NCBI GenBank assembly: GCA_963790025.1
Contig: CAWBMP010000004.1
Span: forward strand, 640,001 to 704,000
Source: Nitrospirota bacterium
GTDB taxonomy: Bacteria; Nitrospirota; Thermodesulfovibrionia; Thermodesulfovibrionales; Dissulfurispiraceae
Direction of reading: 5' to 3'
Length of the DNA: 64,000 nucleotides
This document shows positions 1 through 55,597 of the stretch, in pieces; the stretch's first letter is position 1, and the number at the start of each line of letters is the position of its first letter. Below the pieces are notes generated by a model that did not search any database, was not told the origin of the DNA, and was given only the letters and a program-made list of their open reading frames with translations. Position numbers and translations under genes: made by a program.

Positions 1-467
1 AGCGCGTTCACAAAAAAATATCTTCTCCCCTTGTAGTGAAGAAGCCCCTTTTCCTCAGGTTTATAGCATACAGTGTCTCCGATTTCGGATCCGTATATAC
101 GAAAATCATGGTGGAAAAAGAGTCGGAACTCAGCGAATTTCGACGAAAGATTCCTGGCAGTGATCTCCCTCACGTAGATGTTCTCATGGAAGTCGACGGC
201 GTCCCTCATGAGGATCTCGATCCCCAAGGCAGTATTGATAAGGCGGATCCTCGCTACAAGTGTATCATCTTCATAATCAAGGGTGCGTTCCCAGTCATCT
301 CCGTTGATCCAGCTGAATGCTCCGTTCACCCATACGCCGATCCTGAAGGCATGGCCCTGTGCGTGGTTCTCACTTCCCACTCCCGGGAAGTAAAGATCAC
401 GAACAAGTCCTGTTCTGTCATAGAGTATCAGCAGTGAACCATTGCCTATGGGTATATCCCGCGGCAT
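1..467 (-). CDS. Glycoside hydrolase family 15 (glucoamylase-like) protein, N-terminal part; runs off the window
   Basis: Hand-translated minus-strand frame MPRDIPIGNGSLLILYDRTGLVRDLYFPGVGSENH...FRLFFHHDFRIYGSEIGDT..., open to position 1, with GAGGTG SD. The + strand ORF 36..437 is its shadow. Confidence 0.75.
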   Translation of the reverse strand, partial: MPRDIPIGNGSLLILYDRTGLVRDLYFPGVGSENHAQGHAFRIGVWVNGAFSWINGDDWERTLDYEDDTLVARIRLINTALGIEILMRDAVDFHENIYVREITARNLSSKFAEFRLFFHHDFRIYGSEIGDTVCYKPEEKGLLHYKGRRYFFVNA

Positions 468-527
468 GACCTTTCACCTCCGGCTGTTCTATCACCCTTC
501 CAGACGACGTTGAAACCATCTTTTTAA

Positions 528-827
528 CTATCTCACTGTGTCCCGGTAAGTACCGGCCTTTTTTAAGGCCGCCTCCATTTCTTCAATCGTAATCACTGAT
601 GGATCATAGTAGACAGTGTTTATTTCTTTGAAGTAGCGAAAGCCTTTTTCAACTCTCTTGACACCTTTGAGCCCTGCCAGGGCCTCCTTGCCGACATCGT
701 ATCATTTGACAATAAAGATCACCTTTGATTCCGCATCCTGCTGGGAAAAAGAAACCCTATATCCTGAGAACACAAACAGGCAAATTAAAACAGTGAATGC
801 TGACCAGATATTGATTTGATTCTTCAT
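528..827 (-). CDS. Candidate exported small selenoprotein (99 aa, UGA at codon 42), HMA/MsrA-like fold
   Basis: ATG 827, hydrophobic signal-like N-terminus, in-frame TGA at 704-702 (IVK-U-YDVGKEALAGLKGVKRVEKG), frame continues to TAG 528. Hairpin GAGGCCCT-GGC-AGGGCTC follows the TGA. Absent from the ORF track. Confidence 0.7.
669..686 (-). promoter_or_regulatory. Putative bacterial SECIS element
   Basis: Stem-loop with a G-starting apical loop 23 nt after the UGA; possible lower stem GAUGUC/GGUGUC. Confidence 0.6.
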
Positions 828-855
828 AGTTGCACCTTTCCTTCACTGAACCTTT

Positions 856-1431
856 CTACTTTTTAAAAAGCTTCACGTATTCTCCGTAGCCCTCTTTCTC
901 CAGGTTCTCCTTGGGTATGAAACGGAGTGAGGCTGAGTTCATGCAGAAACGCAGGTGGGTTGGCGGCGGTCCGTCGTTAAATACATGACCGAGATGTGAA
1001 TCGCCATGTTTGCTCCGCACCTCTTTTCTATGGGTAAAAAAGGTCCAATCGTCTTTTTCTACGATATTCCCCGGCTCAAGCGGCTTTGTGAAACTCGGCC
1101 ATCCGGTGCCGGAATCGAACTTGTCGAGGGAACTGTAGAGCGGCTCGCCGGAGACTATGTCGACATATATGCCTTCTTTTTTGTTCTCCGCATATTCGTT
1201 TTGAAAAGCCGGTTCAGTGCCGTTTTCCTGTGTGACATGGTACTGCATAGGAGTCAGTTTCTTTTTGAGCTCTTCCTTTGATGGTTTCACAAATGTCCTC
1301 CATTTAGCTGTTGAAACAGAAGCCGAATATCCTCTAACGTCCGCCTGTTCGGTTTTCTCGGCGTTGGCAATGGAGAGGTAGAACATCGTCAACACCAGGC
1401 CGAAGAGCATTATTTTTATCATTTGCATCAT
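856..1431 (-). CDS. msrB: Peptide-methionine (R)-S-oxide reductase, exported
   Basis: [17 protein letters not shown] and RFCMNS motifs; signal peptide. Confidence 0.95.
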
Positions 1432-1485: not shown

Positions 1486-2094
1486 TCAATGACCGGCCGC
1501 GTCGCCCCATAGCTCCTTGAGCCGCTGGTCACGACCGCACCTGAACCGGTAGTATTTGTAACGGATCGGGTTCTTCTTGTAATAGTGCTGGTGATAATCC
1601 TCGGCTGGGTAGAACTCGGTAGCCTTCACAATCTCCGTCACTATGGGCCCTTTGAATGGTTTATTTTTTTCCAGCAGCGCCTTGGACTGCAGTGCTAACT
1701 GGTGCTGTTCCTCATCATGATAAAAGATGGCGCTTCGATACTGATGTCCTGAATCGCAGAACTGACGATCTTTAGCGGTAGGGTCTATGTTATGCCAAAA
1801 AACAGTCAGGAGCTTTTCGTAGGTCACTTGTGACGGGTCATAGACGACCTGAATCGACTCAGCGTGGCCGCTCCCGCCTGCTGAAACCTCTTCGTAAGTG
1901 GGGTCCTTTTTCTGCCCGCCGGTATAGCCCGGTGTGACCGAAACCACGCCGGGTATCTGATCGAAGGGGTGCTCCATGCACCAGAAACAGCCGCCTGCGA
2001 AGGTCGCTTTCTCATAATTGGTCGCAGCCCTGGCTGCAGTGATCATAATGGGTCCTGCCAACAGCAACCCCAGGGATAGAATTAAATATTTCAT
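1486..2094 (-). CDS. msrA: Peptide-methionine (S)-S-oxide reductase, exported
   Basis: AGGCFWCME, GHAE and AEDYHQHYY motifs; signal peptide. Confidence 0.95.
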   Translation of the reverse strand: MKYLILSLGLLLAGPIMITAARAATNYEKATFAGGCFWCMEHPFDQIPGVVSVTPGYTGGQKKDPTYEEVSAGGSGHAESIQVVYDPSQVTYEKLLTVFWHNIDPTAKDRQFCDSGHQYRSAIFYHDEEQHQLALQSKALLEKNKPFKGPIVTEIVKATEFYPAEDYHQHYYKKNPIRYKYYRFRCGRDQRLKELWGDAAGH

Positions 2095-2127: not shown

Positions 2128-2607
2128 TTATTTTTTAAGTATTGCCGGCCAGTTCTCATCAGCTTTTTTGATATTTCCCGGGATGTCTTTGCTCCACTTG
2201 TCCCTTATTTTCTTGCTGAGGTTGAGATAAAGCCTTCCACCGACGACAGTCCAAGCTTCAGGGTCGATGTCGGCTACGGACCCCCGACTTATTGCATATG
2301 CGCAATACCCCCCATACTTCGGTGCGTACTTCTCCATGTTCCTAATGAACAGGTCCTTGTGATCGGCGCTCGCGAAATACCATTTTGCACCCATCCAGAC
2401 ATACTCGAACGCTCTGTTTCCCTTCACCGGTTTTCCATCGACGAAATAGGCCACGGGATCATAGCCCTTTATTGCAACACCGTCAGAAGTTTTATTTACA
2501 GGTCCGATTGCAAATGCAGGACTTAAACTGAATAGAGAGACCGCCGCGACGATAAGCATTGCCATAACAGCGTTCTTTTCGTTCCTTTTATACATATGCG
2601 ATTCCAT
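2128..2607 (-). CDS. YHS-domain family protein, exported (Cys form)
   Basis: AIKGYDPVAYF, WYFAS, PKYGGYCAYA and ADENWP motifs. Confidence 0.85.
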   Translation of the reverse strand: MESHMYKRNEKNAVMAMLIVAAVSLFSLSPAFAIGPVNKTSDGVAIKGYDPVAYFVDGKPVKGNRAFEYVWMGAKWYFASADHKDLFIRNMEKYAPKYGGYCAYAISRGSVADIDPEAWTVVGGRLYLNLSKKIRDKWSKDIPGNIKKADENWPAILKK

Positions 2608-2737
2608 AATCGACCCTCCCGGTAACTGCTAAAAATACCTATTTTATTCTATCATCTGCCTCCAGGATGTCAAGTTCCCGGAGATATCTTTCTGCCCGGT
2701 TATTTCTTCAGCCCTGCTTCTATGTTAGCGCCAAAAA

Positions 2738-2808: not shown

Positions 2809-4338
2809 TCAGAAGTTGCTGTAAAAAGGCAGGGTGAATGCGAATGTAGTCCCAACACCAACCGCACTATCGACCTTAATATCACTTCCGTGGAGTTCAA
2901 GGATTCTACTGGTGATAACCAGGCCAAGTCCCGTCCCCTCAGCGTCCCTCGGACGTTCCCTTTTTAATTGATAAGAGCGATCAAAGAGATGCATAAGGTC
3001 CTCCGGCTGGATGCCTGAGCCGGTATCTGAAACCTGTACCATCAACCTCTCCCCTTTAGGGAGCAGAGCGATGGTGATAGAGCCGCTTTCGGGTGTATAC
3101 CGAACGGCATTTTCAATCAGATTCTCAAACACTCGTTCGATAAGCCCGATGTCTGCATAGACAAAGGGAATATCTTCAACGAAATTTGTTCGGAGACCGA
3201 TCTTTTTCTTCTCAGCAACAAGCTGGAACTTTTGCACTATGTCCTGTATGAGTTCACCCGGAGAGAAAGGTTCAGAACGGACCTGGAAATCAGGTGAATC
3301 CAGTTTCGCCAGTTCAAAGAGCCCGGAAACCAGCTTGCCTAACTGGTCGGAACGCTTAAGGGCAATCTTGATATACTTCCGTTCCTCCTCGATCGTCAAC
3401 TCACCTTCCTTCAGGAGTAAGGTCTCAAGGTATCCCTGGAGAGATGTCAGAGGCGTACGAAGATCGTGCGTAATATTGGCGATGAATTTCCGCCGAAGAC
3501 TATCAGTCTGTCTGAGTTCCTTTATCAGTCCGATAATGCGCTCGGCCATCTGAGTAAAGATCGATCGAAGGCGGTCGATTTCGTCCCGAGAACGGCCTTT
3601 AATGAAGGGCCCAAAAACAGGAGAAGCCGAAAAATCACCCTGCCGGAAGGTCTCCATGTCCGCCGTAAGTCGTCGGAGTCGAAGTGTCATCAGGAAAAAA
3701 AGGAGAAGTCCGGCCGCCAAGGCAAATAACAAGCCTCCTGCCACGGCCCATATAGAGAGCCGGAGTATGAAACTGTCCCGGAGCATCCCTGCGACCGTAT
3801 CAAACTCCTCGCTGTCCAGGATAACGTAGAGGTAACCTTGAATTTGACTGTTCAGCGATATCGGCGCAGCGGAGAACACTTTTTTTCGTTTTAGGTCACG
3901 CGGGTCATCTCCCAGGATGGGAAGAGAAACGGTCTTGTTCAGGAATTCCTTCAGGGGTCCCAGCGAGACATTATGCCTTTTCACCTTTTCAGGAGGCGCG
4001 GAGAATGCCAGGATTTCGCCGTTATGATCCAGGAGGTATACCTCAATGCTCGGATTGACAACCATCATCATCTGAAAAATACCCTGAAGGGCTTTTTCAT
4101 TGGCCCCGCCGTCCTTCATCAATATTTTTTCCGATGCCAAATTTTGCGCCAGAGTGCGATTGAGCTTCTGGTTCACTTCCTGAAAATACCTTCGGGTAGT
4201 GTAGAGAGTAAGCAGAATGTAAAGGACCCCGATCAGACAGAGCAGCCCGAACAGGACAGCAGCAAACTTGCAATAAAGGCTCTTGAACAATAGACTATCC
4301 TTTTTCAGAAGCTTCAGAATCGTTGAACCTGTATCCAA
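2809..4338 (-). CDS. Sensor histidine kinase (HAMP-HisKA-HATPase); true start may be near 4290
   Basis: Two TM segments, ITHDLRTPL H-box, NLIENA, DTGSGI, GTGLGL. Confidence 0.93.
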   Translation of the reverse strand: MDTGSTILKLLKKDSLLFKSLYCKFAAVLFGLLCLIGVLYILLTLYTTRRYFQEVNQKLNRTLAQNLASEKILMKDGGANEKALQGIFQMMMVVNPSIEVYLLDHNGEILAFSAPPEKVKRHNVSLGPLKEFLNKTVSLPILGDDPRDLKRKKVFSAAPISLNSQIQGYLYVILDSEEFDTVAGMLRDSFILRLSIWAVAGGLLFALAAGLLLFFLMTLRLRRLTADMETFRQGDFSASPVFGPFIKGRSRDEIDRLRSIFTQMAERIIGLIKELRQTDSLRRKFIANITHDLRTPLTSLQGYLETLLLKEGELTIEEERKYIKIALKRSDQLGKLVSGLFELAKLDSPDFQVRSEPFSPGELIQDIVQKFQLVAEKKKIGLRTNFVEDIPFVYADIGLIERVFENLIENAVRYTPESGSITIALLPKGERLMVQVSDTGSGIQPEDLMHLFDRSYQLKRERPRDAEGTGLGLVITSRILELHGSDIKVDSAVGVGTTFAFTLPFYSNF

Positions 4339-5014
4339 CGCCCCAAACAGTCAAAATGTGACGGGGTTTGGCAGGGTCTTTCTCAATCTTGGCCCTCAGC
4401 CGGTTAATGTGAGAATTCACAGTATGTTCATAGCCTTCATAGCCGTAACCCCATACCTGGTTCAGCAGTTCCATGCGTGAATACACCCTTCCGCGGTTAT
4501 TGACCAAGTGGAGCAGGAGGTCGAACTCTTTGGCTGTCAAGAGCACGGGATTCCCCTGGAGCACGACTTTTCGCTTTTCAACATCAATAATCAGATCGCC
4601 CGCCTGGACCACTTTCTCCGATTTCTGAGATGTCTCCGATTTCAGCGCCTCCACACGCCGGAACAGCGCCTTGACCCGCGCCATAAGTTCCCGGATGCTG
4701 AAGGGTTTTGTCAGGTAATCGTCTGCTCCCATCTCCAGACCGAGGACCCGGTCAAGTTCGGAAGACCTGGATGACAGTATCAGCATCGGGGTGTAGCAGT
4801 GTGCGGCCCTGACCTGTCTGCAAATCTCCACACCGTCAACCCCCGGGAGCGTCAGATCCAGAATAATCAGGTCATACTGTTTCGAGAGGGCCTGATCGAG
4901 CCCCGCATTGCCGTTATAAGCCAGGCCCACTTCATATCCGGCATCCCTCAGGTGCAATTCCACGAGATGGGCAATATCTTTATCGTCTTCAATTATAAGG
5001 ATTCTGCCAGACAT
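4295..5014 (-). CDS. OmpR-family response regulator
   Basis: Receiver domain (IEDD, LDLTLP, KPF) and winged-helix C-terminus (TVWGVGYRF). Confidence 0.95.
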   Translation of the reverse strand: MSGRILIIEDDKDIAHLVELHLRDAGYEVGLAYNGNAGLDQALSKQYDLIILDLTLPGVDGVEICRQVRAAHCYTPMLILSSRSSELDRVLGLEMGADDYLTKPFSIRELMARVKALFRRVEALKSETSQKSEKVVQAGDLIIDVEKRKVVLQGNPVLLTAKEFDLLLHLVNNRGRVYSRMELLNQVWGYGYEGYEHTVNSHINRLRAKIEKDPAKPRHILTVWGVGYRFNDSEASEKG

Positions 5015-5029
5015 CAGTTTTTTGCACCA

Positions 5030-5407
5030 TTATGTAAAAAATTCATCGTCCTCAAACATGGGATAGTGCTTTCTATTCATCGTCCAGAGCTTGAAAACAT
5101 TTATTTTTGCGGCTGCACCAACGAGCGCATCAGCCATAGTCACAGAATGCGACTTGCCATAGTCCAGAAGGAACTGACCGGCGAGTTGACCCGTCCTCTT
5201 GTCTATGCCAAGCATATTCAGCGAGTCAATAAATGTCTCAACCCTGACCTTTTCTTTAAGCCGAATGCCGGAATAGATTTCCGTCACCTGTACCGGCGTC
5301 ATAAAAACATGGCCGCAGGTTTCTCTTATAACTTCTTTAAAGCGCTCAACCAAAGCCTTGTCCTGCCGCAGGACCCAAAAGAGGATGTCAGTGTCGGCTA
5401 CGAGCAA
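5030..5407 (-). CDS. vapC: PIN-domain toxin (VapC family)
   Basis: DTDIL, TEIYSG, MADALVGAAA, TMNRKHY. Confidence 0.85.
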   Translation of the reverse strand: MLVADTDILFWVLRQDKALVERFKEVIRETCGHVFMTPVQVTEIYSGIRLKEKVRVETFIDSLNMLGIDKRTGQLAGQFLLDYGKSHSVTMADALVGAAAKINVFKLWTMNRKHYPMFEDDEFFT

Positions 5408-5637
5408 ACCTTCCGGTCCTTGCGCACTTTACGCATAAACTCATCCACATCGAACCGTCTGTTCCTCCAGAGACCGCTTGCGCTGTCAGTGGCCCTGATC
5501 ATCATTTCCACCCTGCCGCTCAATTTTTTTTGCACGCTATCACGGATAATCTCAGATATTGAGATGCCTTTGAGCTTACTTTCTCTTTTCAAATTGCCAC
5601 AGGTTTCGTCGTCGATATAGATTTGAGTTCGTTTCAT
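5398..5637 (-). CDS. Ribbon-helix-helix (CopG-like) antitoxin
   Basis: MKRTQIYID...ISISEIIR; GGAGG SD before ATG 5637; overlaps the toxin start. Confidence 0.8.
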   Translation of the reverse strand: MKRTQIYIDDETCGNLKRESKLKGISISEIIRDSVQKKLSGRVEMMIRATDSASGLWRNRRFDVDEFMRKVRKDRKVCS

Positions 5638-5866
5638 AAAGCTGCCTCCGACATGATGTATATATACATTATATTTCGCGGGTAACTTCAAAAACAATGG
5701 ATGCAAGACAAATTTTTTGCCCGGGACTACTGAGGTCGCTTTGGAAATCATTCCGGTTTACATGATCAGATATTTTCAGACGTCCGCCTTTGATAATTCA
5801 TGGCAACCTTTCTGAACCGCCTCAAACGCAGTAACCGCAAAGAAAGTCCCGCTATCTTATTTTTAG

Positions 5867-13716: not shown

Positions 13717-14895
13717 CTAAAATATAATAACTGAGATAAGGGCTGCTACAAGCACAACGTAGAGAATATCGACTTTTCTCACAAGTGCGGCAAGGGATCC
13801 ACATGCTAATAATATCCGGAGAATATCCCATGGAACAGCCATAGCGAACTGTATGGTCACGAAGAAAAGAAGCCCTACAAAGGAAGCGAGTATACCCTTT
13901 GTTGCCCTGAGAAAGTAAGCGGAATTCTTCAGCTTGTCCATTACGGGTGTAAAGGAGATCACCATAAGAAAAGATGGGGTAAATATGGCAACAGTGGCGA
14001 CAACAGCGCCTGCTATTCCATGAATTAAGTAGCCAACAAAGGTTGATGTGATAACTATGGGGCCTGGCGTGACCTGTCCGAGAGCTATCCCATCCATGAA
14101 GGTCTTGCTGTCCATCCATCGCCTTGCATCAACCACCTCATGAAGCATCAGTGGTACGGAAGCAAAGCCGCCGCCAAAGGCGAAGAGATCAATCCTCATC
14201 ATCAACACGGCGAGACTAAAGATTTTTGTATCTATGAGATAAATCATGAGAAGCCCTAGAAGCAAAATCAAGAGAAGCACAGAGAGTTGTTTTCCACTAT
14301 GCCTGTCTGTTTCCCTTTCACCGGATGATGCAGGAATAATGCCCTTGCCACTCAGAAATACAATGCCAGCTAAGGCGGCCCCCAAAATGACAATAAAGGG
14401 GCTTACTCCGGCCCACAGAACGACGGCGGCCGCTAAGGTAAGAAGGATGTCTTTGAAATTCTTAAACGTGCTTTTGCCGAAGGAATATGTCGCATTTGCA
14501 ACGATGGCAACCACGACAACCTGTAGGCCTTTAAACAGTGAGACAATCATGGAAACTGCATGATACCTGGCATAGAGCGAGGAAAGTATCAGCATCAAAA
14601 TAAATGCAGGCAGACCGAAGCCGACAAACGATGCCAATGCGCCTACGATACCCCTTGCCCTAAGACCCACATATGCAGCGGTCTGCATTGCGGTGGCTCC
14701 CGGTATTGTTTGGCAGAGTGCGACCCCATCCTTAAATTTTTCTCCGTCAAGCCACTTGTGACGCATTACAGCCATTTCTTTTATGTACGCAACCATTGCA
14801 GGACCGCCGAAGGCGGTCAGCCCGAGCTTTAAGAAGGAAAAGAATAGTTTCAATGGTGTAGGGCGCGTATTAATAAGTCCTCTATTTTTCTTCAA
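13717..14895 (-). CDS. chrA: Long-chain chromate efflux transporter
   Basis: Two repeats: AFGGP...QTIPG and AFGGG...QVTPGP. Confidence 0.9.
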   Translation of the reverse strand: MKKNRGLINTRPTPLKLFFSFLKLGLTAFGGPAMVAYIKEMAVMRHKWLDGEKFKDGVALCQTIPGATAMQTAAYVGLRARGIVGALASFVGFGLPAFILMLILSSLYARYHAVSMIVSLFKGLQVVVVAIVANATYSFGKSTFKNFKDILLTLAAAVVLWAGVSPFIVILGAALAGIVFLSGKGIIPASSGERETDRHSGKQLSVLLLILLLGLLMIYLIDTKIFSLAVLMMRIDLFAFGGGFASVPLMLHEVVDARRWMDSKTFMDGIALGQVTPGPIVITSTFVGYLIHGIAGAVVATVAIFTPSFLMVISFTPVMDKLKNSAYFLRATKGILASFVGLLFFVTIQFAMAVPWDILRILLACGSLAALVRKVDILYVVLVAALISVIIF

Positions 14896-15538
14896 CGATC
14901 CTCCCGTTTTGCATAATCAGATTCTTGTCCGCCAGTCTTCCAGCTTGTTTTTTATCATGTGTGGTGATCACAACAGTTGTATTATGTTCTTTTTTCAGCT
15001 TCATGACTATGTTTTCTATAATATCCGTATTGGCCTGATCTACAGATGCAGTTGGCTCATCAAGAAAAAGAATTTCAGGTTTTATGACCAGCGCCCTTGC
15101 TATGTTAAGGCGCTGTGTTTCACCGCTTGAAAGGGTCAAGGCGTTTTGATCACTTTTATAGCCCAGACCGACAAACTCAAGGGCCTCCCGAACCTTTACC
15201 CTCGCCTGCGCACCTTTAATTCCTCTGATTGTCAAACCATAGGTGATATTTCGAAATACCGTAGTGTTGAAAACACCGGAACGGGAAAAGACCATGGTGA
15301 TCTTGCGCCTCAATGACAAGTCCTTAACTGCCGTGCTGTCTTGAGAGAAGAATAAGATATCACCGCTGTCAGGCGGCTCTATTAGAGCACAGATTCTCAG
15401 AAATGTAGATTTGCCGCAGCCGTTCGGTCCTGTTAAGACATAAATGCCGCTCCCGTCAAAAGAGAATGAGCATTCTTTCAGCACACAGCTTCCGTTATAG
15501 CTCTTCCCGATATTTAATGCTGCAAATGTAAGGCTCAC
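14882..15538 (-). CDS. tupC: Tungstate ABC transporter ATPase
   Basis: GPNGCGKS, LSSGE, LDEPT; operon context. Confidence 0.8.
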   Translation of the reverse strand: MSLTFAALNIGKSYNGSCVLKECSFSFDGSGIYVLTGPNGCGKSTFLRICALIEPPDSGDILFFSQDSTAVKDLSLRRKITMVFSRSGVFNTTVFRNITYGLTIRGIKGAQARVKVREALEFVGLGYKSDQNALTLSSGETQRLNIARALVIKPEILFLDEPTASVDQANTDIIENIVMKLKKEHNTTVVITTHDKKQAGRLADKNLIMQNGRIVEEK

Positions 15539-16242
15539 CTTTTTGCCCCACTGATGCCCCTCTTCTGAATAAAATACAGGGCTGAATTTATTGCAAGAGA
15601 AATTGACAAGAGTATTATGCCGAGCGCAAGTGCAAGCTCGAAATTCCCTTTGTCCGTTTCCATTGCTATGGTCGTCGTCATCACTCTGGTAAAGCTTGCG
15701 ATATTGCCGCCGACAATTAGTATTGCTCCGACTTCGGCCATAACCCTACCAAAAGCTGCCATTATCGCCGACATTATTCCGTAGCGGGCCTCTCTTATTA
15801 CAGTCATCGAAACCTGGAAACGGGTCGCGCCGAGCGTCATCGCAGTTTGCTTAATGATGGGATCAACACTCACAATAGCCGAATGACTTAGAGATGAGAC
15901 AATAGGGAAGGAAAGGACGCTCTGGGCAATAATCATGGCGGAAGGGGTATAGAGCAGAGACATAAAACCCAGAGGGCCGTTCCTCGATAATAAAAGGTAT
16001 ATGAACAGTCCAACAACAACCGGAGGCAGTCCCATAAAGGTGTTTAAAATGCTTATGCTCAAACCCCTTAACGGGAATTTTCTGAATGCAAGAAGAGCGC
16101 TAAGTGGAAGGCCGATAAAGGTAGCGCAAAGAAGCGCGGAACCGGATACCCTGATAGACAGAAATATGATTCCGAGAAGTTCTTTATCGAGATTCAGAAT
16201 GAGAAAAAGCGCTCTTGTAAAACTCTCCAATATTGAACTCAT
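15535..16242 (-). CDS. tupB: Tungstate ABC transporter permease
   Basis: MGLPPVVVGL, FGRVMAEVGA, GGNI...TRVMTT. Confidence 0.88.
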   Translation of the reverse strand: MSSILESFTRALFLILNLDKELLGIIFLSIRVSGSALLCATFIGLPLSALLAFRKFPLRGLSISILNTFMGLPPVVVGLFIYLLLSRNGPLGFMSLLYTPSAMIIAQSVLSFPIVSSLSHSAIVSVDPIIKQTAMTLGATRFQVSMTVIREARYGIMSAIMAAFGRVMAEVGAILIVGGNIASFTRVMTTTIAMETDKGNFELALALGIILLSISLAINSALYFIQKRGISGAKR

Positions 16243-16266
16243 AAACTATATCCTGTCCTAATTCAT

Positions 16267-17088
16267 TTATTTTGCATTAGGTATGAAAAGTTGATTCCCG
16301 TTTTTATCTTTGAACGATGCAATGGCCTGTTGTCCTTCTTTTGATATCAGCCAGTTTACAAACTCCATTGCCTCCTTATATTTCACGTGCTTAAATTTTT
16401 GAGGATTTACCGCCATAACTCCATACTGATTAAATAGTGAAGGGTCACCTTCGAGGACGCTTATCATTGCAAGCTTATCTTTATCCTTTGTGGCCAGCCA
16501 AGTCCCCCTGTCTGTCAGTGTATAAGCACGTTTTTCGTTTGCTATTCTCTGGGCCTTTTCCATCCCTTGTCCAACCTCGATATACCATTTCTGACATTTG
16601 GGCTCGATGCCAGTCTTTTTCCATATTGATAATTCCTTCGTATTTGTGCCTGAATTATCTCCTCTTGAAACGAACAGAGAAGAACCGGCTATTTTCTTAA
16701 ATGCATCCGTGACAGACTTCATGCCCTTTATTTTTCCAGGGTCGTTATCAGGTCCTATAACAATAAAGTCGTTATACATCACATCATGGCGATTCACAAA
16801 AAAACCCTCTTCAACAGCCTTTAGCTCCTGCTCCTTCGCATGGACAAAGGCCACGTCAGCATCTCCTCTTTTGCCCATTTCTATAGCCGCGCCTGTTCCG
16901 CGTGCGACAACCTTCACCTTAATGCCTGTTTTCTTCTCGAACATCGGTAGTATGTAAGCAAATAAGCCGGAATTCTCTGTGCTTGTCGTTGAAGAACAGA
17001 TTATCTCTGTGGAAGCAGAAACATATATCGGGCTGCAGATAATTGCACATAATACTATAAACAAACAAAGATTTACTTTCTTGAACAT
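16267..17088 (-). CDS. tupA: Tungstate ABC transporter substrate-binding protein
   Basis: TTSTENSGL, GTGAA, MYNDF, SRGDNSGT. Confidence 0.9.
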   Translation of the reverse strand: MFKKVNLCLFIVLCAIICSPIYVSASTEIICSSTTSTENSGLFAYILPMFEKKTGIKVKVVARGTGAAIEMGKRGDADVAFVHAKEQELKAVEEGFFVNRHDVMYNDFIVIGPDNDPGKIKGMKSVTDAFKKIAGSSLFVSRGDNSGTNTKELSIWKKTGIEPKCQKWYIEVGQGMEKAQRIANEKRAYTLTDRGTWLATKDKDKLAMISVLEGDPSLFNQYGVMAVNPQKFKHVKYKEAMEFVNWLISKEGQQAIASFKDKNGNQLFIPNAK

Positions 17089-21218: not shown

Positions 21219-21908
21219 TCATGATTTGTGTTTCTCTGCAACTTTCTTTCTGATCTCCTCCATCTTCTTCGAGAAATCCTCTTTTTGTCTTCGCTCTGTT
21301 TCATCCTTGGGCTCGAAAACAGGGTTAGTCACTTTCCATGTGAGCTGGGCGCTGATCGGACTTTCAGGATATGCTCCGATATCGTAAAGCGTCTGCCCAT
21401 CGAACAGAGTTGGCGTTTCCTGATAACAGGAACATACGGCCTTTCTTAGGAGATCAGGGGTACCGCGGTTGAGCAGATCGATGACTGAAACTATCTGTTT
21501 TCTGAAACGCTCGACAAATTCAATAGGGAGGTTGAAGAGATACGGCGTAGGCGCCGTGGTGTTCCTGATTCTCTTGCGCTCATCAACGCCGTCTTTCAAC
21601 AGTGACTTTATGGCTTCACCCGTCGAATGACCCGGGGACTCGGGTCCAGTCAGCACAAGATAGCGGATATTTGGATTGCCTATGATATTGCAGATCATCT
21701 TTTCGATGCCGATGTTTTCGGTCTGTATCGTCCCCGATATCGCAGAGCCAGCCTCGACGCCGGTTCTGACGAGCAGTTCTATGTCCTTCGGAATTTTGTC
21801 TTCGTCATAGATCAGTATAACCGCGACAGCTACAGGAGAATAATCGTTTCCTCTTAGATATCGGCCTTCTTCAGTCGGATAATCGGGTGACGGCTTAACC
21901 TTGAGCAT
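21219..21908 (-). CDS. MtrA-like corrinoid protein (tetrahydromethanopterin S-methyltransferase subunit A family)
   Basis: SPVAV, GTIQTENIGIEKMICNIIGNPNIRYLVLTGPESPGHSTG, VERFRKQI. Confidence 0.85.
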   Translation of the reverse strand: MLKVKPSPDYPTEEGRYLRGNDYSPVAVAVILIYDEDKIPKDIELLVRTGVEAGSAISGTIQTENIGIEKMICNIIGNPNIRYLVLTGPESPGHSTGEAIKSLLKDGVDERKRIRNTTAPTPYLFNLPIEFVERFRKQIVSVIDLLNRGTPDLLRKAVCSCYQETPTLFDGQTLYDIGAYPESPISAQLTWKVTNPVFEPKDETERRQKEDFSKKMEEIRKKVAEKHKS

Positions 21909-21963: not shown

Positions 21964-22257
21964 TCAACAACAGCCGCCATTTTCAGAGTCGCCGCAACCA
22001 CAGGACGGTTCTCCGCCTGTAATCATGCTCCTGATAAGTGCCGAGGCGCATCCAACGCCAGCTTCGACTTCCAACGCTCCAAATTCACAGTTATTGGCGC
22101 AAGCGCCGCATTCCATGCAACGGTCGATGTCGATGACGCGCACCTTCTTACCGTTCTTCTCAAAGACAGCATGCGGGCAGACTTCAATACAAGTCCCGCA
22201 GCCCGTGCATTTTTCTGCGGAGAAAACCAAACTCACTACGTTCGATAGATATTTCAT
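21964..22257 (-). CDS. hgcB: Mercury methylation ferredoxin HgcB
   Basis: CTGCGTCIEVCP, CMECGACANNC, GVGCA, terminal CC; ATGA overlap with hgcA. Confidence 0.95.
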   Translation of the reverse strand: MKYLSNVVSLVFSAEKCTGCGTCIEVCPHAVFEKNGKKVRVIDIDRCMECGACANNCEFGALEVEAGVGCASALIRSMITGGEPSCGCGDSENGGCC

Positions 22258-23312
22258 ACAATCCCCCATTCATTAAGCTTATACACTAAAACAAGTAGAA
22301 GTGATACTATCACTGATCCTATGTAAAAAGGCATCGCTATCCGCAACTCTTTTTTAACCCCTGACATGCCTGTAAATGTTGTTGAGCCGGTGAATTGAAG
22401 CGCTACATATGAGCTAGCGGCAGGGAAGAAGAGACACGCGGCTCCAAAAAGGACCCATGCATGTATAAAGTAAGACCTTAGAATATGCCCTGTAATTACG
22501 ACTGAAAGTGCACCCGTTATCCATCCCTTTATCGCAAAAGACCTGAATGGAACAAATGGGAGCATGACAGGGGTAATTAAAGCGCCGCTCAAGACCGCAA
22601 TGAATCCAATAAGCAAGAACGGCATTCCACCTGACCACGCCTTGCTGAATATGATGCCTGAAGGAGTAAGCCCGAACAAAACCAGCATGGTCAGAGCAAA
22701 AAGAGGATAATTCTTCATAGCTGGAATGATCTCCATAGGAGTAAGAATGAGTCTATCCCAAACCGGAAACTTTACTAAACTCATTTCATCAGTCTTCCGG
22801 TATCCGGCGCTGAGATATGCCGGTATGTCCTTGGCGTTTACAGGTCCGAAATGCACTTTAAATCCGGTCACCTTATGTACCTCCCTCGCATTCACTCCGG
22901 GAGCGCAAAGCTGGGGCGCTATAATCCTCTTGTGATCCACAACATCCTGTAGCCGCGCCTCACGAATCCTCTTTACCAATTCATTCGTGCCAAACGTCCC
23001 TTTTCCGGCAGCACACCAGACATTGATTCCTTTAGTGTCCAAAACAAGTATCCACGCATTCAGTCCCTTCAAACTTCTGCGGAGTATGTCGAAACTCAAT
23101 TTGTAATTGGCGCTTGCGAACACGTCCGAATCCCTGCCCGGTTCTCCGAGGGCATAGAGTCCAGGTTTGACTATGTAGCTCATCCGCAACCCGCTGATTC
23201 TGCATTTCACCTGTCCCCAAATATCGGAATGTGACCACTCTGATGATGTTTTTGATATTTCTGGTTGCTTATCAGGACAACAGAGAGGGATTATGGCAAG
23301 CTTGTTCTGCAT
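22254..23312 (-). CDS. hgcA: Mercury methylation corrinoid protein HgcA
   Basis: ANYKLSFD, cap-helix GINVWCAAGKGTFG, C-terminal TM helices, FTGSTTFT. Confidence 0.96.
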   Translation of the reverse strand: MQNKLAIIPLCCPDKQPEISKTSSEWSHSDIWGQVKCRISGLRMSYIVKPGLYALGEPGRDSDVFASANYKLSFDILRRSLKGLNAWILVLDTKGINVWCAAGKGTFGTNELVKRIREARLQDVVDHKRIIAPQLCAPGVNAREVHKVTGFKVHFGPVNAKDIPAYLSAGYRKTDEMSLVKFPVWDRLILTPMEIIPAMKNYPLFALTMLVLFGLTPSGIIFSKAWSGGMPFLLIGFIAVLSGALITPVMLPFVPFRSFAIKGWITGALSVVITGHILRSYFIHAWVLFGAACLFFPAASSYVALQFTGSTTFTGMSGVKKELRIAMPFYIGSVIVSLLLVLVYKLNEWGIV

Positions 23313-23313
23313 T

Positions 23314-24699
23314 TTACCGGGCCTCCCTGCGCCTATCGTCGGATAGACGGATTTCTCTATTCCACGACTGGGCGGCCATTTGCACAGGGTCCCAGGGGCT
23401 GGAGAGTGGCGGTGTATAGCTGAGATCCAGGTCGTTCAATGCCTCCACGGGCATCCCATTATGAACTGCAGCAGCCACCGTGTCGATACGCTTAGAAACC
23501 TCTGTGCCATAAGTGCCGATGATCTGCATGCCCAGAAGTTTGCGTGTTTTTTTATCGCCTGTGATGCGAATTCGCAATTTTTCCGCGTGGGGATAATAGA
23601 ACTTATGGTCCCAAGTGTCAATATCCACAGACAAGGGAGAAAACCCTTCTTTCAGGGCTTCATCGTCTTTCAGGCCTGTCCGTGCAGCAACAAGATTGAA
23701 AATCTTAACGGATTGGGTTCCCAAGGTACCGGTATATTCTCGATTGCCGCCTACTGCGTTTTCACCGGCTACGCGACCCTGTTTATGAGCAGTAGTGCCC
23801 AAGGGCAGGTATGTGTTTTTCCCAAGCAGCCGGTGAAAGGTTTCCACACAGTCTCCCGCTGCATAAATATCAGGAATGGAGCTCTCCATTCGCCGATTGA
23901 CGCAAATCGCGCCCTTAACGCCGGTTGCGATACCCGCAGATTGGGCCAGACGGGTTTCCGGTCGGCTGCCTACAGCCACGAGAACCATATCGGCAGTAAT
24001 AGCATCTCTAGCTGAGCGCACAGAAAGCGAACGTCCAGTGGATTCGATCTGTTTCACACTAAATTCGTTGAACACCTGAACACCATTTTTTTCCAATTCC
24101 GTCCGCACGATGCTACCCAAGGCAGGATCAAAAGTTGTTAGAACGGAAGGTGCAAATTCGACTACTGAAACGGAGAGACCTCGTAGCTTCATGGCATCGG
24201 CCATTTCCATACCGATATAACCTGCACCGATAATGACGATAGAGGCAGGACTACGAGCAGTGAGGTATTCCTGAAACGCAAAACTGTCTGCCATCCATCT
24301 AAGAAAAAAGACGCCGGGAAGATCGATGCCGGGAAGATTCGGTATAAGAGATTTGCCTCCGGTACCTATAACAAGCCTGTCGTAAGAAAACGTCTTGATA
24401 TGGCCTCCAGTATCAGTAGCAACTATTTGTTTTCGGTCAGAAATGATGGATGTGACACGATGCTGTGTCACAACTTTGACCCCTTCTTTTTCAATTTCAT
24501 CAGCGGTGCGATGAGCTAATGCTTTCCAGTCTGGAACCTCACCACTCAGATAAAACGGAAGACCGCAGATACTGAAATTAGGATATTGGTCTGCCAGGAT
24601 CATGGTGACTTCTGTATTGGGCTCCAATTCTTTGACTCGAAGGCCTGCGCTGATTCCGGCATCACTGCCGCCGATAATTACTATTTTTTCAGGTTTCAT
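23314..24699 (-). CDS. CoA-disulfide reductase / NADH oxidase-family flavoprotein
   Basis: GGSDAG, NFSICGLP, GAGYIG, AAGDC, DLSYTPP. Confidence 0.88.
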   Translation of the reverse strand: MKPEKIVIIGGSDAGISAGLRVKELEPNTEVTMILADQYPNFSICGLPFYLSGEVPDWKALAHRTADEIEKEGVKVVTQHRVTSIISDRKQIVATDTGGHIKTFSYDRLVIGTGGKSLIPNLPGIDLPGVFFLRWMADSFAFQEYLTARSPASIVIIGAGYIGMEMADAMKLRGLSVSVVEFAPSVLTTFDPALGSIVRTELEKNGVQVFNEFSVKQIESTGRSLSVRSARDAITADMVLVAVGSRPETRLAQSAGIATGVKGAICVNRRMESSIPDIYAAGDCVETFHRLLGKNTYLPLGTTAHKQGRVAGENAVGGNREYTGTLGTQSVKIFNLVAARTGLKDDEALKEGFSPLSVDIDTWDHKFYYPHAEKLRIRITGDKKTRKLLGMQIIGTYGTEVSKRIDTVAAAVHNGMPVEALNDLDLSYTPPLSSPWDPVQMAAQSWNREIRLSDDRRREAR

Positions 24700-51693: not shown

Positions 51694-54438
51694 TCACAAC
51701 CTGTCAATCCTCACCGCGCATGATTTGTATTCGGGGGTGCCTGTAATCGGGTCCCTGAATCCTGAAGTCAGTAGGTTTGAAAGCGCATCTCTATGATGGA
51801 AGGTCAGAAATACATTGCCGGTCTGTAAGCGGTCTGATACCTTTATCTTTACCTTTATTTCACCCCTTCTCGAGGATACTTTGACCCATCCGGCGTTCTC
51901 TATGCCCAGTGCTGAAGCGTCTTCCGAACTGATCTCAAGCAGTTCTTCAGGGACTATCTCTGCAATCCCTCTGCACCGCATTGTCATTGAGCCGTTGTTA
52001 TAATGCTCACGTATCCTGCCGGTTATGAGCACTAATGGGTATTCCTGGTCCGGCACTTCGCCTGAACCTATGTGGTCGAGGACCATGAATTTCGCCAGGC
52101 CTCCCGGTCTTGAGAACAAGTCCGAGTACAATGTAGTTGTGCCCGGATGGTCTTTTGTCGGACACGGCCACTGTATGCCCTGTTTTTCAATGCGGCGATA
52201 ACTTATCCCGCCGTAAATCGTGACAAGACTTGCGATTTCGTCCATGATCTCCGATGGATGATTGTAATGCATTGGATAACCCATCAGGGTGGAAAGCCGC
52301 GAGATGACCTGCCATTCGGCCATTCCTGACAGCGGTTCGATTGCCTTTCTGACACGCTGCACCCTGCGTTCACCATTAGTGAATGTGCCGTCCTTTTCAG
52401 CAAAACTTGCGCCGGGGAGAATCACATCAGCAAACTTCGTGGTCTCGGTATGGAATATGTCCTGGACAACGAGGAATTCGACCGCTTCAAGCGCCCCACG
52501 CACATGGTGGAGATCGGCATCCGTCTGTGCCGGGTCCTCGCCGAGTATGAATATGCCCTTAAACTTCCCCCTCCGGCATTCATCGAGCATCTCAACGGAT
52601 TTAAGTCCCGGCCTGGGATCTATTTTTACACCCCATGCCTTTTCAAATTTAGCGCGCACTTCCGGACTTGTTACGGATTGATATCCCGGAAGAGTAGCAG
52701 GCAGTGGACCCAGGTCGGAAGCGCCCTGGACATTGTTCTGTCCTCTGAGGGCCATAATGCCTGTTGACGGCCTGCCGAGATGTCCGCAGACAAGTGCAAG
52801 GTTCGCAATTGCCATCGCATTCTCTGTGCCGGTCCGGTGTTCGGTAATGCCGAGACCATAAACGATCATCGCTTTTCCTGCATGCGAATACAGCCGTGCC
52901 GCTTCGATTATCTTTTCTTTTGAAACTCCGGTAAGAATCTCGACCCTGTCGAGATCATACTCTGCTACCTTTGCCTTGAGTTCTTCAAACCCTTCTGTCC
53001 TTTTGGCGATAAAATCCCTGTTTTCCCAGCCGTTCTCCAATATCACATTGACGAGGCCGTTCAACATTGCTATATTGCTGCCGGGCTTAAGGTTAAGCCA
53101 GACGTCGGCCCGATTGGCCATCCAGGTCTTTCTCGGGTCTCCGACAATAAGCTTTGCACCGTTGCGCAATCCTTTTTTAAGCCAGAGGGAAATGATCGGA
53201 TGGCCTTCCGTCGGATTCGAGCCGAACAAAAACAGGGCATCCAGGTCCGCCATCTGGCTTAATGAATTGGTGGAAGCTCCTGCTCCGAGGCTTGTGGCCA
53301 GACCGGCCACAGTGGGCGCGTGTCAGACCCGGGCGCAGTTGTCCACATTATTGGAACCGACTGCGCATCTGACCCATTTAGAAAGCAGATAATTCTCCTC
53401 ATTCGTACAGCGCGACGAGGAAAAGCCGCCTACCTTTTCAGGGCCGTATTTATCTATGAGTTCCCTGAATTTCGAGGCAACAAGATTGAGCGCCTCGTCC
53501 CATGTCGCCTCGCGAAAACACTTGCCTTCTTTTATCAGCGGCGTCCTAATTCTGTCGTCGCTGTGAATGAACTCGTAGCCGTATCTTCCCTTTATGCAGA
53601 GGTTGCCCCTGTTCACCGGGGCCTCATAGTCCGATGTCACTTTGACAACTCTGTCGTTCTTCACGTTCAAAAAGAAGTTGCAGCCGGTCCCGCAGTATGT
53701 ACAGGTGGTCTTCACCTGTTTCATCTGATATTTGCGTCCCTTGCCCCTGCCCCTCCTGTCAGTCAACGCAGCAGTCGGGCACGTGGAAACACATTGTCCG
53801 CAGAACTCGCAGTTCTCGAGAGAGCGGGGTTTCCGGAATGCCGTGTCCGGGAGCGCATCAAAACCCCTTCCGGTAATTTCGATAGTCCCGGCCATCACAA
53901 CATCGTTGCATATCCTTGTACACCGGCCGCACACTATGCACTTGTTCGGCTCATAGGTTATAAAGGGGTTGTCCTCCCTTACAGGCAGGTCCCACTTCTC
54001 GCCCCTCAAGTCGGCTGAATTTAACTCAGTATTCGCGGCAGGACTCCCATGGTCAGCCCCGTATTCATACACAATGTCCTGAAGCTGGCAGTCGCCTGTC
54101 TTTTCGCAATGAGGGCAATCGAAGGGGTGGTTGGAGAGAATCAGCGCTAGATTCGTTTTTCTCAACTCAGTAAGTGTTTCGCTCTCGGTTATGACCTCCA
54201 TGCCGTCCACGACAGGAGTTGTACAGGAAGAAAGAGGTCTGTCGGACCCCTTCACTTCAACAAGGCAGAGCCTGCAGCCGCCATACGGCTCAAGGCGCTT
54301 GTCATAGCACAACGTCGGAATCTTTATGTTCGTATCCCTGCATACATCAAGGATGGTTTTTCCGCTCTCGCAGGATACAGCGGCGTTATTTATTTTGATT
54401 GTGATCAGCTTTTCGGATGTCTGTGTTATCAAATTCAT
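51694..54438 (-). CDS. fdhA: Selenocysteine formate dehydrogenase alpha subunit with N-terminal Fe-S domains (914 aa, Sec372)
   Basis: The two track ORFs join through TGA 53325-53323: DNCARV-U-HAPTVAGL. Also CTYCGTGC, RGQNNVQG, PEYKSCAV. Confidence 0.95.
53293..53311 (-). promoter_or_regulatory. SECIS element of fdhA
   Basis: TGTGGCC-GGTCT-GGCCACA hairpin starting 11 nt after the UGA, like the E. coli fdhF SECIS. Confidence 0.9.
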
Positions 54439-54790: not shown

Positions 54791-55597
54791 ATGCCGCAAG
54801 AGAAAGCAAGCCTCATCATCGCATCTACGACAAGCACTCTGAACTCTGGACTTTTCGACATACTGATCCCGGCTTATGAGAAATCCAGTAAGTATGGCGT
54901 AAAAGTGGAGATTGTCGCAGTGGGCACGGGAAAGGCGATCAGGATCGCTAAAAAAGGCGAGGCCGATATGCTCTTCGTTCACGATCCTTTCCGGGAGGAG
55001 AAATTTATTGCCGAAGGTTACGGAGTCAATAGAAGGGCTGTAATGCACAATGATTTTGTCATTCTCGGCCCTAAAAATGACCCTGCAAAGATCAAAAATG
55101 TGAAGACAGCGGTAGAGGCATTCGAGGACATAGCCGACAAGGGCGCCCCCTTTATATCGAGAGGCGATGACTCCGGTACCAACATAAAAGAGCTTGACAT
55201 ATGGGATGATACGGGAATCAATCCGAAGGGCAAGGGCTGGTACTTTGAAAGCGGGACCAAAATGGGGGACACATTAACGATGGCGCATCAGAGCAAGGCC
55301 TATACCATCTCCGACATTGGAACATTCCTCAATTATGAAACGAGGATAGACCTGAGGATCCTTTTCAGGGGAGACCCGATCCTGAAAAATTATTATAGTG
55401 TCATTGCAGTGAGCCCGGAGAGGTTCCCGGAGATCAAGTACAGGGAAGCTATGGCTTTTATTGCCTTTGTTACATCTCCCGAAGGGCAAAAGATTATAGC
55501 GGCCTACGTAAAGCACGGCATAAACCTTTTTTATCCTGATGCAGTCCCATCTGTAATGCACAAAAAACAAGCTGCCGGGAAAAAGAAAGCAAAGTGA
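54791..55597 (+). CDS. Second TupA-like tungstate-binding protein with no evident signal peptide
   Basis: STTSTLNSGL, GTGKA, MHNDF, SRGDDSGT. Confidence 0.85.
   Translation: MPQEKASLIIASTTSTLNSGLFDILIPAYEKSSKYGVKVEIVAVGTGKAIRIAKKGEADMLFVHDPFREEKFIAEGYGVNRRAVMHNDFVILGPKNDPAKIKNVKTAVEAFEDIADKGAPFISRGDDSGTNIKELDIWDDTGINPKGKGWYFESGTKMGDTLTMAHQSKAYTISDIGTFLNYETRIDLRILFRGDPILKNYYSVIAVSPERFPEIKYREAMAFIAFVTSPEGQKIIAAYVKHGINLFYPDAVPSVMHKKQAAGKKKAK

Follow-up and report, generated by a model that had tools for sequence, protein, structure and literature searches.

A probable exported selenoprotein of an unnamed family, related to the MsrA core and with a predicted HMA-like fold, in methionine sulfoxide reductase modules

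We analyzed a 64,000-nucleotide stretch of DNA from a Nitrospirota bacterium of the Dissulfurispiraceae (GenBank assembly GCA_963790025.1, contig CAWBMP010000004.1, positions 640,001 to 704,000; hereafter the window, numbered from its first letter), focusing on a short gene with an in-frame TGA codon at 528..827 on the minus strand. We conclude with high confidence that this is a genuine selenocysteine (Sec) gene. Its product, which is predicted to be exported, is a member of an as yet unnamed family with a predicted HMA-like fold and a probable relationship to the core of MsrA; a redox role in methionine repair modules is one explanation of the family and the one that we favor, with some reservation.

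The initial annotation had described a frame directly after msrB with a signal-like N terminus, a single in-frame TGA in the context IVK-U-YDVGKEAL, and a hairpin resembling a selenocysteine insertion sequence (SECIS). Both the coordinates and the description proved correct (Table 1). The start codon lies 28 nt past the msrB stop codon, the TGA falls between strand beta1 and helix alpha1 of the predicted domain, and exactly 23 nt separate the UGA from the first G of the hairpin loop. Residues 3 to 20 form a helix in the AlphaFold2 (AF2) model, and a hydrophobic N-terminal stretch, defined as a 12-residue window with a mean Kyte-Doolittle hydropathy of at least 1.6, was present in all 75 homologous copies whose frame extends 30 or more residues upstream. 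The coding region also contains a perfect palindrome, GGCCTTTTTTAAGGCC, at 550..594 (within ALKKAG). A sub-threshold Rfam match to the histone stem-loop at this palindrome was rejected as spurious, and searching 450..950 against Rfam returned nothing but irrelevant sub-threshold matches of this kind. The minus strand 3' of the gene showed no terminator-like site.

To determine which codon homologous genes carry at position 42, we scanned DNA from one genome per species. This yielded 562 pattern matches, 81 of which encoded relatives, and 80 loci were retained. The codon column was visible in 78 of them (L079 is truncated at a contig end, and L080 is fragmentary); L015 and L032 include the same Cys copy, and counts are given for 79 distinct copies. 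Codon 42 is TGA in 67 copies, TGT or TGC in 11, and CGA in a single copy, while TAA, TAG, and TGG were seen in none of the 79. The terminal stop codons of the candidate genes, read in 78 rows, are TAG (34), TGA (24), and TAA (20). TGA is thus an ordinary terminator in these organisms, yet it is the sole stop codon ever seen at codon 42.

Database proteins gave a different picture at first sight. A protein search in a collection of 5.8 billion clusters returned 130 relatives from 134 candidates, and these were of three kinds: full-length proteins with W at the column, proteins of 55 to 69 residues that start just past it, and full-length proteins with C. Loci L002, L013, and L039, all with TGA at this codon, have exact translations among the W-form proteins (P0003, P0016, and P0038, respectively), showing that the Trp in database proteins is a gene-caller artifact; several W-form proteins also translate the terminal TGA as W. 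A profile search of a 1.84-billion-protein library identified 223 cluster representatives at an E value of 1e-3 or below, and the best 89 of these had C (43), W (27, misread TGA), no residue (15, truncated calls), or another residue (4) at the column. Codon 45, at which the 55-amino-acid (aa) calls start, is GTG in just 12 of 66 Sec forms. Sequence conservation extends to both sides of the TGA, with the hydrophobic leader and beta1 (SKvIFxVx) upstream and UYDVG…EINTVYYDP…GTY downstream. Homologues therefore keep TGA or Cys at this column, and the homology is not confined to one side of it, as the initial annotation had required of a true selenoprotein. The family combines a conserved TGA without other stops, Cys homologues in the same column, two-sided conservation, and a downstream stem-loop with a G-rich loop, all of which are marks of selenoprotein genes. 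In one locus, L019 (6121-6123), CGA (Arg) stands in place of TGA, a D-to-G change follows two codons further, and the hairpin is weakened; this is probably a decaying or repurposed copy.

The hairpin loop reads GGN; counting the closing U-A or U-G pair as open would extend it to UGGNA. Among 68 TGA-bearing sequences, 94.8% of 402 cells were paired, and a compensatory double change occurred in four of the six pairs, for example from C-G to U-A in L068, L071, and L077. None of 500 shuffles matched this pairing, and registers slid along the alignment paired 30 to 69% of cells. The strongest evidence for a recoding signal is the freezing of synonymous positions. In the Sec forms, Ala49 is encoded by GCC in 64 of 66 copies, Leu50 by CTG in all 66, and Gly52 by GGG in 60 of 66, with third-base entropies of 0.2, 0.0, and 0.5 bit, respectively, compared with 1.14 to 1.94 bit in 18 other four-fold columns of these genes. 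The lowest of the comparison columns is Leu53 (1.14 bit), the first two bases of which lie within the 3' stem arm. The 11 Cys forms use GCC (7), GCA (3), or GTG (1) at codon 49, CTC (4), CTG (4), CTA (2), or TTG (1) at codon 50, and GGG (7), GGA (3), or GGC (1) at codon 52, and their stem is often disrupted. An RNA constraint that is confined to the TGA forms matches the prediction for a SECIS element.

The window also encodes the Sec-type formate dehydrogenase alpha subunit (FdhA) that the initial annotation had reported. Its two open reading frames (ORFs) are split by a TGA at 53323-53325 in the canonical site CARV-U-HAP, and a hairpin (UGUGGCC-GGUCU-GGCCACA) begins 11 nt past this UGA. A gene for a selenium metabolism-associated LysR regulator adjoins Sec-FdhA. 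Together, these two genes indicate that the organism decodes UGA as Sec, in support of the earlier proposal.

Next, we examined the fold of the protein and its relation to MsrA and HMA domains, using two AF2 models, one of the window protein (29 sequences) and one of a natural Cys form (40 sequences). Both consist of a leader helix followed by beta1-[U/C]-alpha1-beta2-beta3-alpha2-beta4, with a per-block predicted local distance difference test (pLDDT) score of 85 to 96 over the domain of the window protein and of 96 to 98 for the Cys form. Foldseek searches of the PDB were led by the HMA-type proteins MerP, ATP7B, HMA7, CCS, and CopZ, with E values from 6e-4 upward and target template modeling (TM) scores of 0.7 to 0.8 (MerP 1osd, 0.76 to 0.79). 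The MsrA structure 2l90 ranked 10th for the window-protein model (E = 0.007; root mean square deviation [rmsd], 4.2 over 83 columns). For the Cys-form model, the MsrA chains 6yev_D, 2l90, and 3pim matched at an E value of 0.013, with an rmsd of 2.7 over 73 columns, 2.8 over 75, and 5.2 over 75, respectively.

Profile-profile comparison pointed to MsrA more directly. Using hhalign, we compared two family alignments, A1 and the more diverse A4, with an alignment of the MsrA proteins encoded by neighboring genes, and obtained probabilities of 93.9% (E = 1.5e-7) for A1 and 97.7% (E = 1.7e-12) for A4. The controls were not significant: reversed A1 and A4 gave 2.8% and 0.1%, respectively, and the best of 100 column shuffles gave 2.8%. 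In both alignments, the Sec or Cys falls on the Cys of MsrA GGCFWC. Two ungapped blocks correspond, U-x8-L-x4-GV-x5-G[FW] to MsrA C-x8-F-x4-GV-x5-GY and [VI]-x-YDP-x2-[IV][TS] to V-x-YDP. Between these blocks the candidate has a 17-residue deletion relative to MsrA, and columns 36 to 113 of the MsrA alignment are covered. Glu68 is near-invariant (86 of 90 aligned sequences). The second Cys of HMA domains is absent, and the residue at +3 in the 90 aligned sequences is V in 63, E in 5, M in 5, and I in 3, the five M residues being the start codons of truncated post-TGA calls. A tentative rule that V at +3 accompanies Sec and E accompanies Cys was dropped; CYDEG occurs in one Nitrospirota group, and distant Cys forms have CYDVG. 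Judged from these alignments, homology to the MsrA core is probable, and the family can best be viewed as a free-standing, truncated domain that resembles the MsrA core and has an HMA-like fold, belonging to neither of the two Pfam families. The suggestion that the protein echoes an MsrA/HMA scaffold was thus borne out, with AF2 and Foldseek giving an HMA-like fold and hhalign placing U42 on the catalytic Cys of MsrA.

The family appears in none of the model libraries searched. A Pfam scan of the candidate protein gave no family at E values up to 10, PMSR and HMA included, and no model of NCBIfam release 20 scored above its cutoff for the family, with the MsrA models matching none of 29 members. 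All 29 members matched NF041383 and NF041115 below threshold (best E values, 6.9e-11 and 8.4e-07, respectively). On the window protein, NF041383 scored 32.8 bits against a cutoff of 275 over about 65 residues (profile positions 141 to 205 of 287), and NF041115 scored 27.6 bits against a cutoff of 95. These models, named "VPGUxxT family thioredoxin-like (seleno)protein, type 2" and "UxxU metal-binding (seleno)protein," represent families that trace to a study of Olavius symbionts (table in PMC13188914). NCBIfam models for CopZ, MerTP, and MerP also matched below threshold (E values of about 0.003 to 0.1; CopZ in 20 of 29 members and MerP in 3 of 29). TsoY (NF047643), the sole family listed with the motif UxxV in the same review table (PMC13188914), matched none of the 29 members at an E value of 1 or below in a comparison by model alone. 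VPG[U/C]xxT proteins were sought nearby and discarded as neighbors; the one pattern match over all loci and the window lies in a stop-riddled frame of L061.

Fused or longer forms were found neither among 145 candidates of 175 to 2000 aa obtained with a single-protein query nor among 8000 candidates of 239 to 2000 aa obtained with the 40-sequence alignment, which is weak evidence that none exist; the 150 listed of the 223 library representatives are all at most 170 aa long. The natural Cys form hit only unnamed clusters in the ESM Atlas, every one with a score below 0.9, and NCBI and JGI records call fragments of the family "hypothetical protein" or "copper chaperone CopZ." No description of the family was found in full-text searches or in the 119-family table of a 2026 review (PMC13188914), although it may be listed elsewhere, and the portions of the Olavius symbiont paper and of the deep-Sep paper that were examined contain no fitting family. 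We therefore rate it as a new selenoprotein family, a truncated relative of MsrA, that may already be listed in other compilations; Pfam, NCBIfam release 20, and the review table bear out the statement in the initial annotation that it is not recognized as a named family.

Based on record titles, 34 of the 80 loci are from Nitrospirota (Thermodesulfovibrionia or "Nitrospiraceae") and 43 are from Desulfobacterota in the wide sense, including Syntrophales, Syntrophorhabdales, and Olavius symbionts (L058 and L069). Planctomycetota, Leptospirales, and Sphingobacteriales contribute one locus each. Several metagenome-assembled genomes have two or three paralogues, at times with Sec and Cys forms side by side, and on one contig (L015/L032), an 8-kb stretch holds three copies, with TGA, TGT, and TGA. 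L001 is the nearest relative of the window gene, with 91% identity and an identical gene order.

In the window, the candidate gene completes a cluster that encodes an exported YHS-domain protein, exported MsrA, and exported MsrB, downstream of a two-component system (Table 1). The promoter-like site upstream of the YHS gene is weak, as the region holds no more such sites than shuffled sequence, and it possibly starts a YHS-msrA-msrB-selenoprotein transcript. Directly upstream of the response regulator gene lies a pair of genes for a PIN-domain and a ribbon-helix-helix protein (5030..5751, minus strand), likely a toxin-antitoxin module.

To gain insight into how far this arrangement is conserved, we searched the loci with the window proteins by tblastn and found MsrA in 39 of 80, MsrB in 37, the kinase in 43, and the YHS protein in 13. 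Clustering of 694 ORFs within 4 kb of the candidate gene at 78 loci gave a two-component system at 43 loci, MsrA/MsrB, mostly as a fused exported MsrAB, at 37, a sulfite-oxidase-family molybdoenzyme (PF00174) at 24, and Msr and/or a molybdoenzyme at 51. Less frequent neighbors were a YHS protein (12 of 78), a pyridine-nucleotide-disulfide oxidoreductase (8), a DedA-type protein (7), cytochrome b561 (5), a Met-rich secreted protein (4), and an extracytoplasmic function (ECF) sigma factor directly 3' of the candidate gene (3). In the latter three loci, all from Desulfobacterales (L049, 1719-2321; L055; L063, 5089-5667), the candidate is immediately followed by the sigma factor gene and a gene for a secreted protein of 113 aa. 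Genes often occur in the order regulator, kinase, (molybdoenzyme), candidate, (YHS), MsrAB, whereas in the window lineage, including L001 and L002, the candidate follows msrB instead. Since gene order differs between lineages, the linkage outlasts rearrangement.

Among the linked genes, GGCFWC is invariant in the MsrA alignments (20 of 20 and 21 of 21). GTGWPSF is found in 34 of 36 linked MsrB ORFs (the other 2 did not match the pattern); its Thr occupies what we take to be the position of the resolving Cys of many MsrBs. DsbD/CcdA had no match among the 16 representatives of recurrent clusters or the 93 other same-strand ORFs scanned. These 93 ORFs included one DsbA-like protein, located beside a di-heme cytochrome c peroxidase in L015, and a cytoplasmic-type Trx2 is encoded on the opposite strand in four loci. 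The molybdoenzymes form three size classes (about 220 to 260, 355 to 375, and 540 to 556 aa) directly beside the candidate, as in L018:7780-8556, L035:5259-5963, L028:3945-5615, and L021:4870-5943, and five are paired with cytochrome b561. Compared with NCBIfam models, four representatives all scored below the cutoffs: MsrP was the best model for one (258 aa, paired with cytochrome b561; 97 bits against a cutoff of 207), and SorA or SoxC sulfite dehydrogenase was best for the other three.

Sec-form YHS genes, with TGA at GGY-U-AYAV, adjoin the candidate at L035:6346-6800, L038:6274-6750, and L066:1186-1650 (ends approximate), such that two different selenoprotein genes stand side by side before msrAB. 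The YHS copies in L001 and L014 look frameshifted. Secreted, very Met-rich proteins containing repeats (e.g., MMKQGDMMMK) are encoded at L003:6673-7176, L015:6579-7061, L025:2128-2568, and L031:2865-3305 and had no Pfam or NCBIfam match. L008 and L014, on contig CAWHNC010000024.1, carry near-identical modules (candidate, YHS, cytochrome b561, and molybdoenzyme) in opposite orientation about 9.5 kb apart, an arrangement explained by a large inverted duplication or else by misassembly.

Table 1. Positions in the window of the candidate selenoprotein gene, its parts, and associated genes
Feature	Position	Strand	Remarks
Selenoprotein coding sequence	528..827	minus	99 residues/99 codons; ATG 825-827, TAG 528-530
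Shine-Dalgarno-like sequence	833..840	minus	GAAAGGTG; 5 nt upstream of ATG; read directly from sequence
Signal-peptide-like N terminus, about residues 1-28	744..827	minus	Hydrophobic stretch MKNQINIWSAFTVLICLFVFSGYRVSFSQQ; predicted only
In-frame TGA, codon 42	702..704	minus	Context IVK-U-YDVGKEAL; the single one in frame
SECIS-like hairpin	670..684	minus	GGCCCU-GGC-AGGGCU; stem +18..+23 / +27..+32 after UGA; G-rich loop
Post-UGA domain, alpha1-beta2-beta3-alpha2-beta4	531..701	minus	Motifs UYDVG, EINTVYYDP, GTY; from AF2 models and conservation
Exported MsrB	856..1431	minus	Pfam SelR, E = 3.3e-46; no resolving Cys at the usual place
Exported MsrA with GGCFWC	1486..2094	minus	Pfam PMSR, E = 4.8e-66
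Exported YHS-domain protein, Cys form (GGYCAY)	2128..2607	minus	NCBIfam NF041384, 164 bits (cutoff 70)
Promoter-like TTGACA-16-TAGAAT upstream of YHS gene	2646..2673	minus	Consensus scan, 11/12 matches
Sensor histidine kinase	2809..4338	minus	Pfam HAMP, HisKA, HATPase_c
OmpR-type response regulator	4295..5014	minus	Pfam Response_reg, Trans_reg_C
Sec-type FdhA	51694..54438	minus	Two ORFs, each matching NCBIfam TIGR01591

In the model that we propose, UGA codon 42 would be decoded as Sec with the help of the G-rich-loop hairpin that begins 18 nt downstream, giving an exported mature domain of about 70 residues with a single Sec or Cys at the N terminus of alpha1. The module as a whole would serve periplasmic methionine sulfoxide repair and oxidant defense under a linked two-component system, with exported MsrA, MsrB that has no resolving Cys at its usual position, a YHS (seleno)protein, a molybdoenzyme, and, at a small number of loci, secreted Met-rich proteins as partners. 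Within it, Sec42 would act as the redox nucleophile. We infer this role from the position of the Sec, from what a review says of the chemistry of MsrA and Sec-MsrA, and from analogy with a Fusobacterium nucleatum locus, and we lean slightly toward a redox nucleophile in this particular module. The protein would thus be a periplasmic selenol nucleophile in methionine sulfoxide and oxidant defense, and the idea of the initial annotation, a periplasmic Sec redox protein that may assist MsrA/MsrB, fits the conserved neighborhood.

Two versions of the mechanism can be considered. The protein could itself reduce sulfoxides or oxidants as a minimal enzyme, forming a selenenic acid that the thiol of a neighbor would resolve; that it is specifically a sulfoxide reductase in its own right is a tentative proposal. 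Alternatively, it could act as a relay that exchanges reducing equivalents with the adjacent Msr enzymes, in either direction, via a selenenylsulfide, resolving the sulfenic acid of MsrB or the disulfide of MsrA, and would then occupy the slot of the Trx/CcdA genes in other exported-Msr operons. More speculatively, it may be the smallest Msr-type enzyme, an exported single-Sec "mini-MsrA" that acts on sulfoxides as a reductase, or removes hypohalite or peroxide, in the anaerobe periplasm, depends on neighboring Msr or YHS proteins rather than Trx/CcdA for its recycling, and represents a living intermediate between HMA and the MsrA core.

Several results weigh against this reading or parts of it. 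At the RNA level, the hairpin has a stem of just 6 bp (-8.5 kcal/mol), folding of the single sequence was no better than that of shuffles (z = 0.12 for 71 nt, -0.43 for 60 nt, and -0.36 for 28 nt), and RNAalifold on 68 sequences chose another, 3-bp hairpin (-2.9 kcal/mol) without covariation. Because RNAalifold missed it, the named hairpin was tested by pair counting and codon entropy. Its start, 18 nt past the UGA, is also 7 nt further than that of the fdhA hairpin in the window (11 nt). None of selA, selB, selD, and tRNA-Sec was found within the 64-kb window. With regard to MsrA, Pfam PMSR does not match the candidate, and a sequence profile compared with solved chains matched HMA domains only, and marginally so (E = 0.027 to 2). 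The candidate is without the entire C-terminal half of MsrA. The MsrA residues that bind the sulfoxide (the aromatic pocket FW, the Tyr of GY, and a Glu) are only partly kept, with FW replaced by YD and the Tyr of GY by F or W, and the match of Glu68 to the MsrA Glu (GHxE) depends on gap placement and differs between the two alignments. Two electrons are more than a single selenol can provide, and the surroundings show no obvious reductant for it. Finally, 27 of the 78 loci have neither Msr nor a molybdoenzyme within 4 kb.

The main rival, which we nevertheless consider unlikely, is a periplasmic metal binder of the HMA/MerP type, in which the selenolate, as a dimer or together with the Cys or Sec of the YHS protein, would bind Cu(I), Hg(II), or a similar soft metal; such a protein might buffer the metal, pass it on, or report it to the histidine kinase in envelope stress. 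Its nearest solved folds are the HMA domains of MerP, ATP7B, CopZ, and CCS, and HMA domains are also the only sequence matches among solved structures. The metal-binding model NF041115 weakly matches all 29 members, the CopZ model 20, and the MerP model 3, and JGI labels some truncated copies as copper chaperone CopZ. In addition, the kinase and regulator resemble the heavy-metal sensor pairs TIGR01386 and TIGR01387, although below cutoff, and the neighbors include YHS domains and DUF364/DUF4213 "heavy-metal chelation" genes. However, the second Cys of the CxxC site is absent, the +3 residue of the 90 aligned sequences being mostly V (63) and sometimes E (5), there is no other conserved Cys or His, Met84 is often Leu or Ile, and the Pfam HMA model does not match. 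The Sec or Cys is separated from the conserved G-V by 13 residues, as in the MsrA of the neighbors, whereas alpha1 of MerP is longer, as counted on the matched MerP fragment. Profile comparison, with its strong controls, favors MsrA, and the steadiest partners of the family are methionine sulfoxide reductases rather than metal pumps.

An accessory periplasmic sensor is still less probable. Here the selenol would be oxidized by HOCl or peroxide, and the oxidized protein would modulate the kinase and so switch on the Msr genes. A two-component system within 4 kb at 43 of 78 loci is consistent with this, as are the many loci in which the gene directly follows the kinase gene (e.g., L022, L023, L026, L039, and L053) and those in which a two-component system and the candidate occur without any Msr gene (L039, L043, L069, and L071). 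Yet 35 of 78 loci have no such system within 4 kb, and the window gene comes last in its operon, past msrB, where a separate promoter-like site may stand before it. No physical link to the kinase is in evidence, and two or three paralogues, as found in several genomes, would be unusual for a dedicated co-sensor.

The last alternative, that the gene does not encode a selenoprotein because the TGA terminates translation (what follows being a small ORF of its own or the remnant of a pseudogene) or means Trp or Gly in a deviant code, can appeal to the 55-aa post-TGA ORFs and W-containing proteins of gene callers, to a window without a Sec machinery gene, and to the degenerate-looking CGA copy in L019, but is essentially excluded by 67 independent in-frame TGAs beside 11 Cys codons and no TAA or TAG, by purifying selection on both sides of the TGA, by the lack of a start codon at codon 45 in most copies (GTG in 12 of 66), by an RNA constraint just past the TGA in TGA forms only, by the canonical Sec-FdhA in the window, and, for a TGA-sense code, by the true TGA terminators of 24 of 78 genes.

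Together, these results describe a widespread selenoprotein family that is systematically misannotated, as 55-aa stubs, as CopZ, or as Trp-containing artifacts, in lineages (Nitrospirota/Thermodesulfovibrionia and Desulfobacterota) that have large selenoproteomes. The family connects selenium use with methionine sulfoxide repair in the envelope and is a candidate for what reduces or accompanies exported MsrA/MsrB where msr operons lack Trx/CcdA. The combination of an HMA fold, an MsrA-core sequence, and a common nucleophile column offers a testable link between families usually held to be unrelated, and since natural Cys forms exist, the family can be tested directly in Escherichia coli.

The window holds further genes related to the metabolism of metals and selenium. 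HgcA, the corrinoid protein of mercury methylation, is encoded at 22254..23312 (minus strand; NF040863, 393 bits against a cutoff of 275) and adjoins genes for an MtrA-like methyltransferase subunit (21219..21908) and a CoA-disulfide-reductase-like protein (23314..24699); HgcA and the CoA-disulfide-reductase type are listed among families that have Sec forms (PMC13188914). A full tungstate transporter, TupA/TupB/TupC, is encoded at 14882..17088 (minus strand), and a second, stand-alone TupA at 54791..55597 (plus strand) lies near Sec-FdhA (51694..54438), which suggests that this formate dehydrogenase is tungsten dependent.

Compared with known families, the candidate shares with MsrA (PF01625) the core homology, the nucleophile column at the N terminus of the first helix, the YDP motif, and the spacing to G-V and G-[YFW]. 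It differs in having about 70 residues where the MsrA domain has about 150, in reading U/C-Y-D-V-G where MsrA has C-F-W-G/C, and in being without a recycling Cys. Sec replaces the catalytic Cys of MsrA in some bacteria (PMC13188914), and the known Sec-MsrAs thus carry Sec in the homologous position. With HMA, MerP, and CopZ (PF00403), the candidate has in common its size, its fold, and a reactive residue at the first metal-site Cys, and MerP is likewise exported; it departs from them in the missing second CxxC Cys, in giving no Pfam HMA match, and in matching HMA sequences only marginally. NF041383 and NF041115, the best library matches, are Sec/Cys families of similar anaerobes; compared via profiles only, the candidate is without the VPGUxxT motif, the thioredoxin-like part, and the second Sec, and has U-Y-D-V instead.

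Two known systems resemble the modules as a whole. In Azospira, the Met-rich protein MrpX, a hypochlorite sink, is reported to be paired with a YedY-type reductase (PMC4436054), and some candidate loci similarly combine Met-rich secreted proteins with a YedY-like molybdoenzyme, although the molybdoenzymes here score below the MsrP cutoff. In F. nucleatum, the exported MsrAB sits in a ccdA-trx-msrAB-modR-modS locus. A two-component system is linked to exported MsrAB there as in the candidate modules, but where the F. nucleatum locus has ccdA and trx, a small Sec/Cys protein, sometimes accompanied by a YHS protein, takes that place here.

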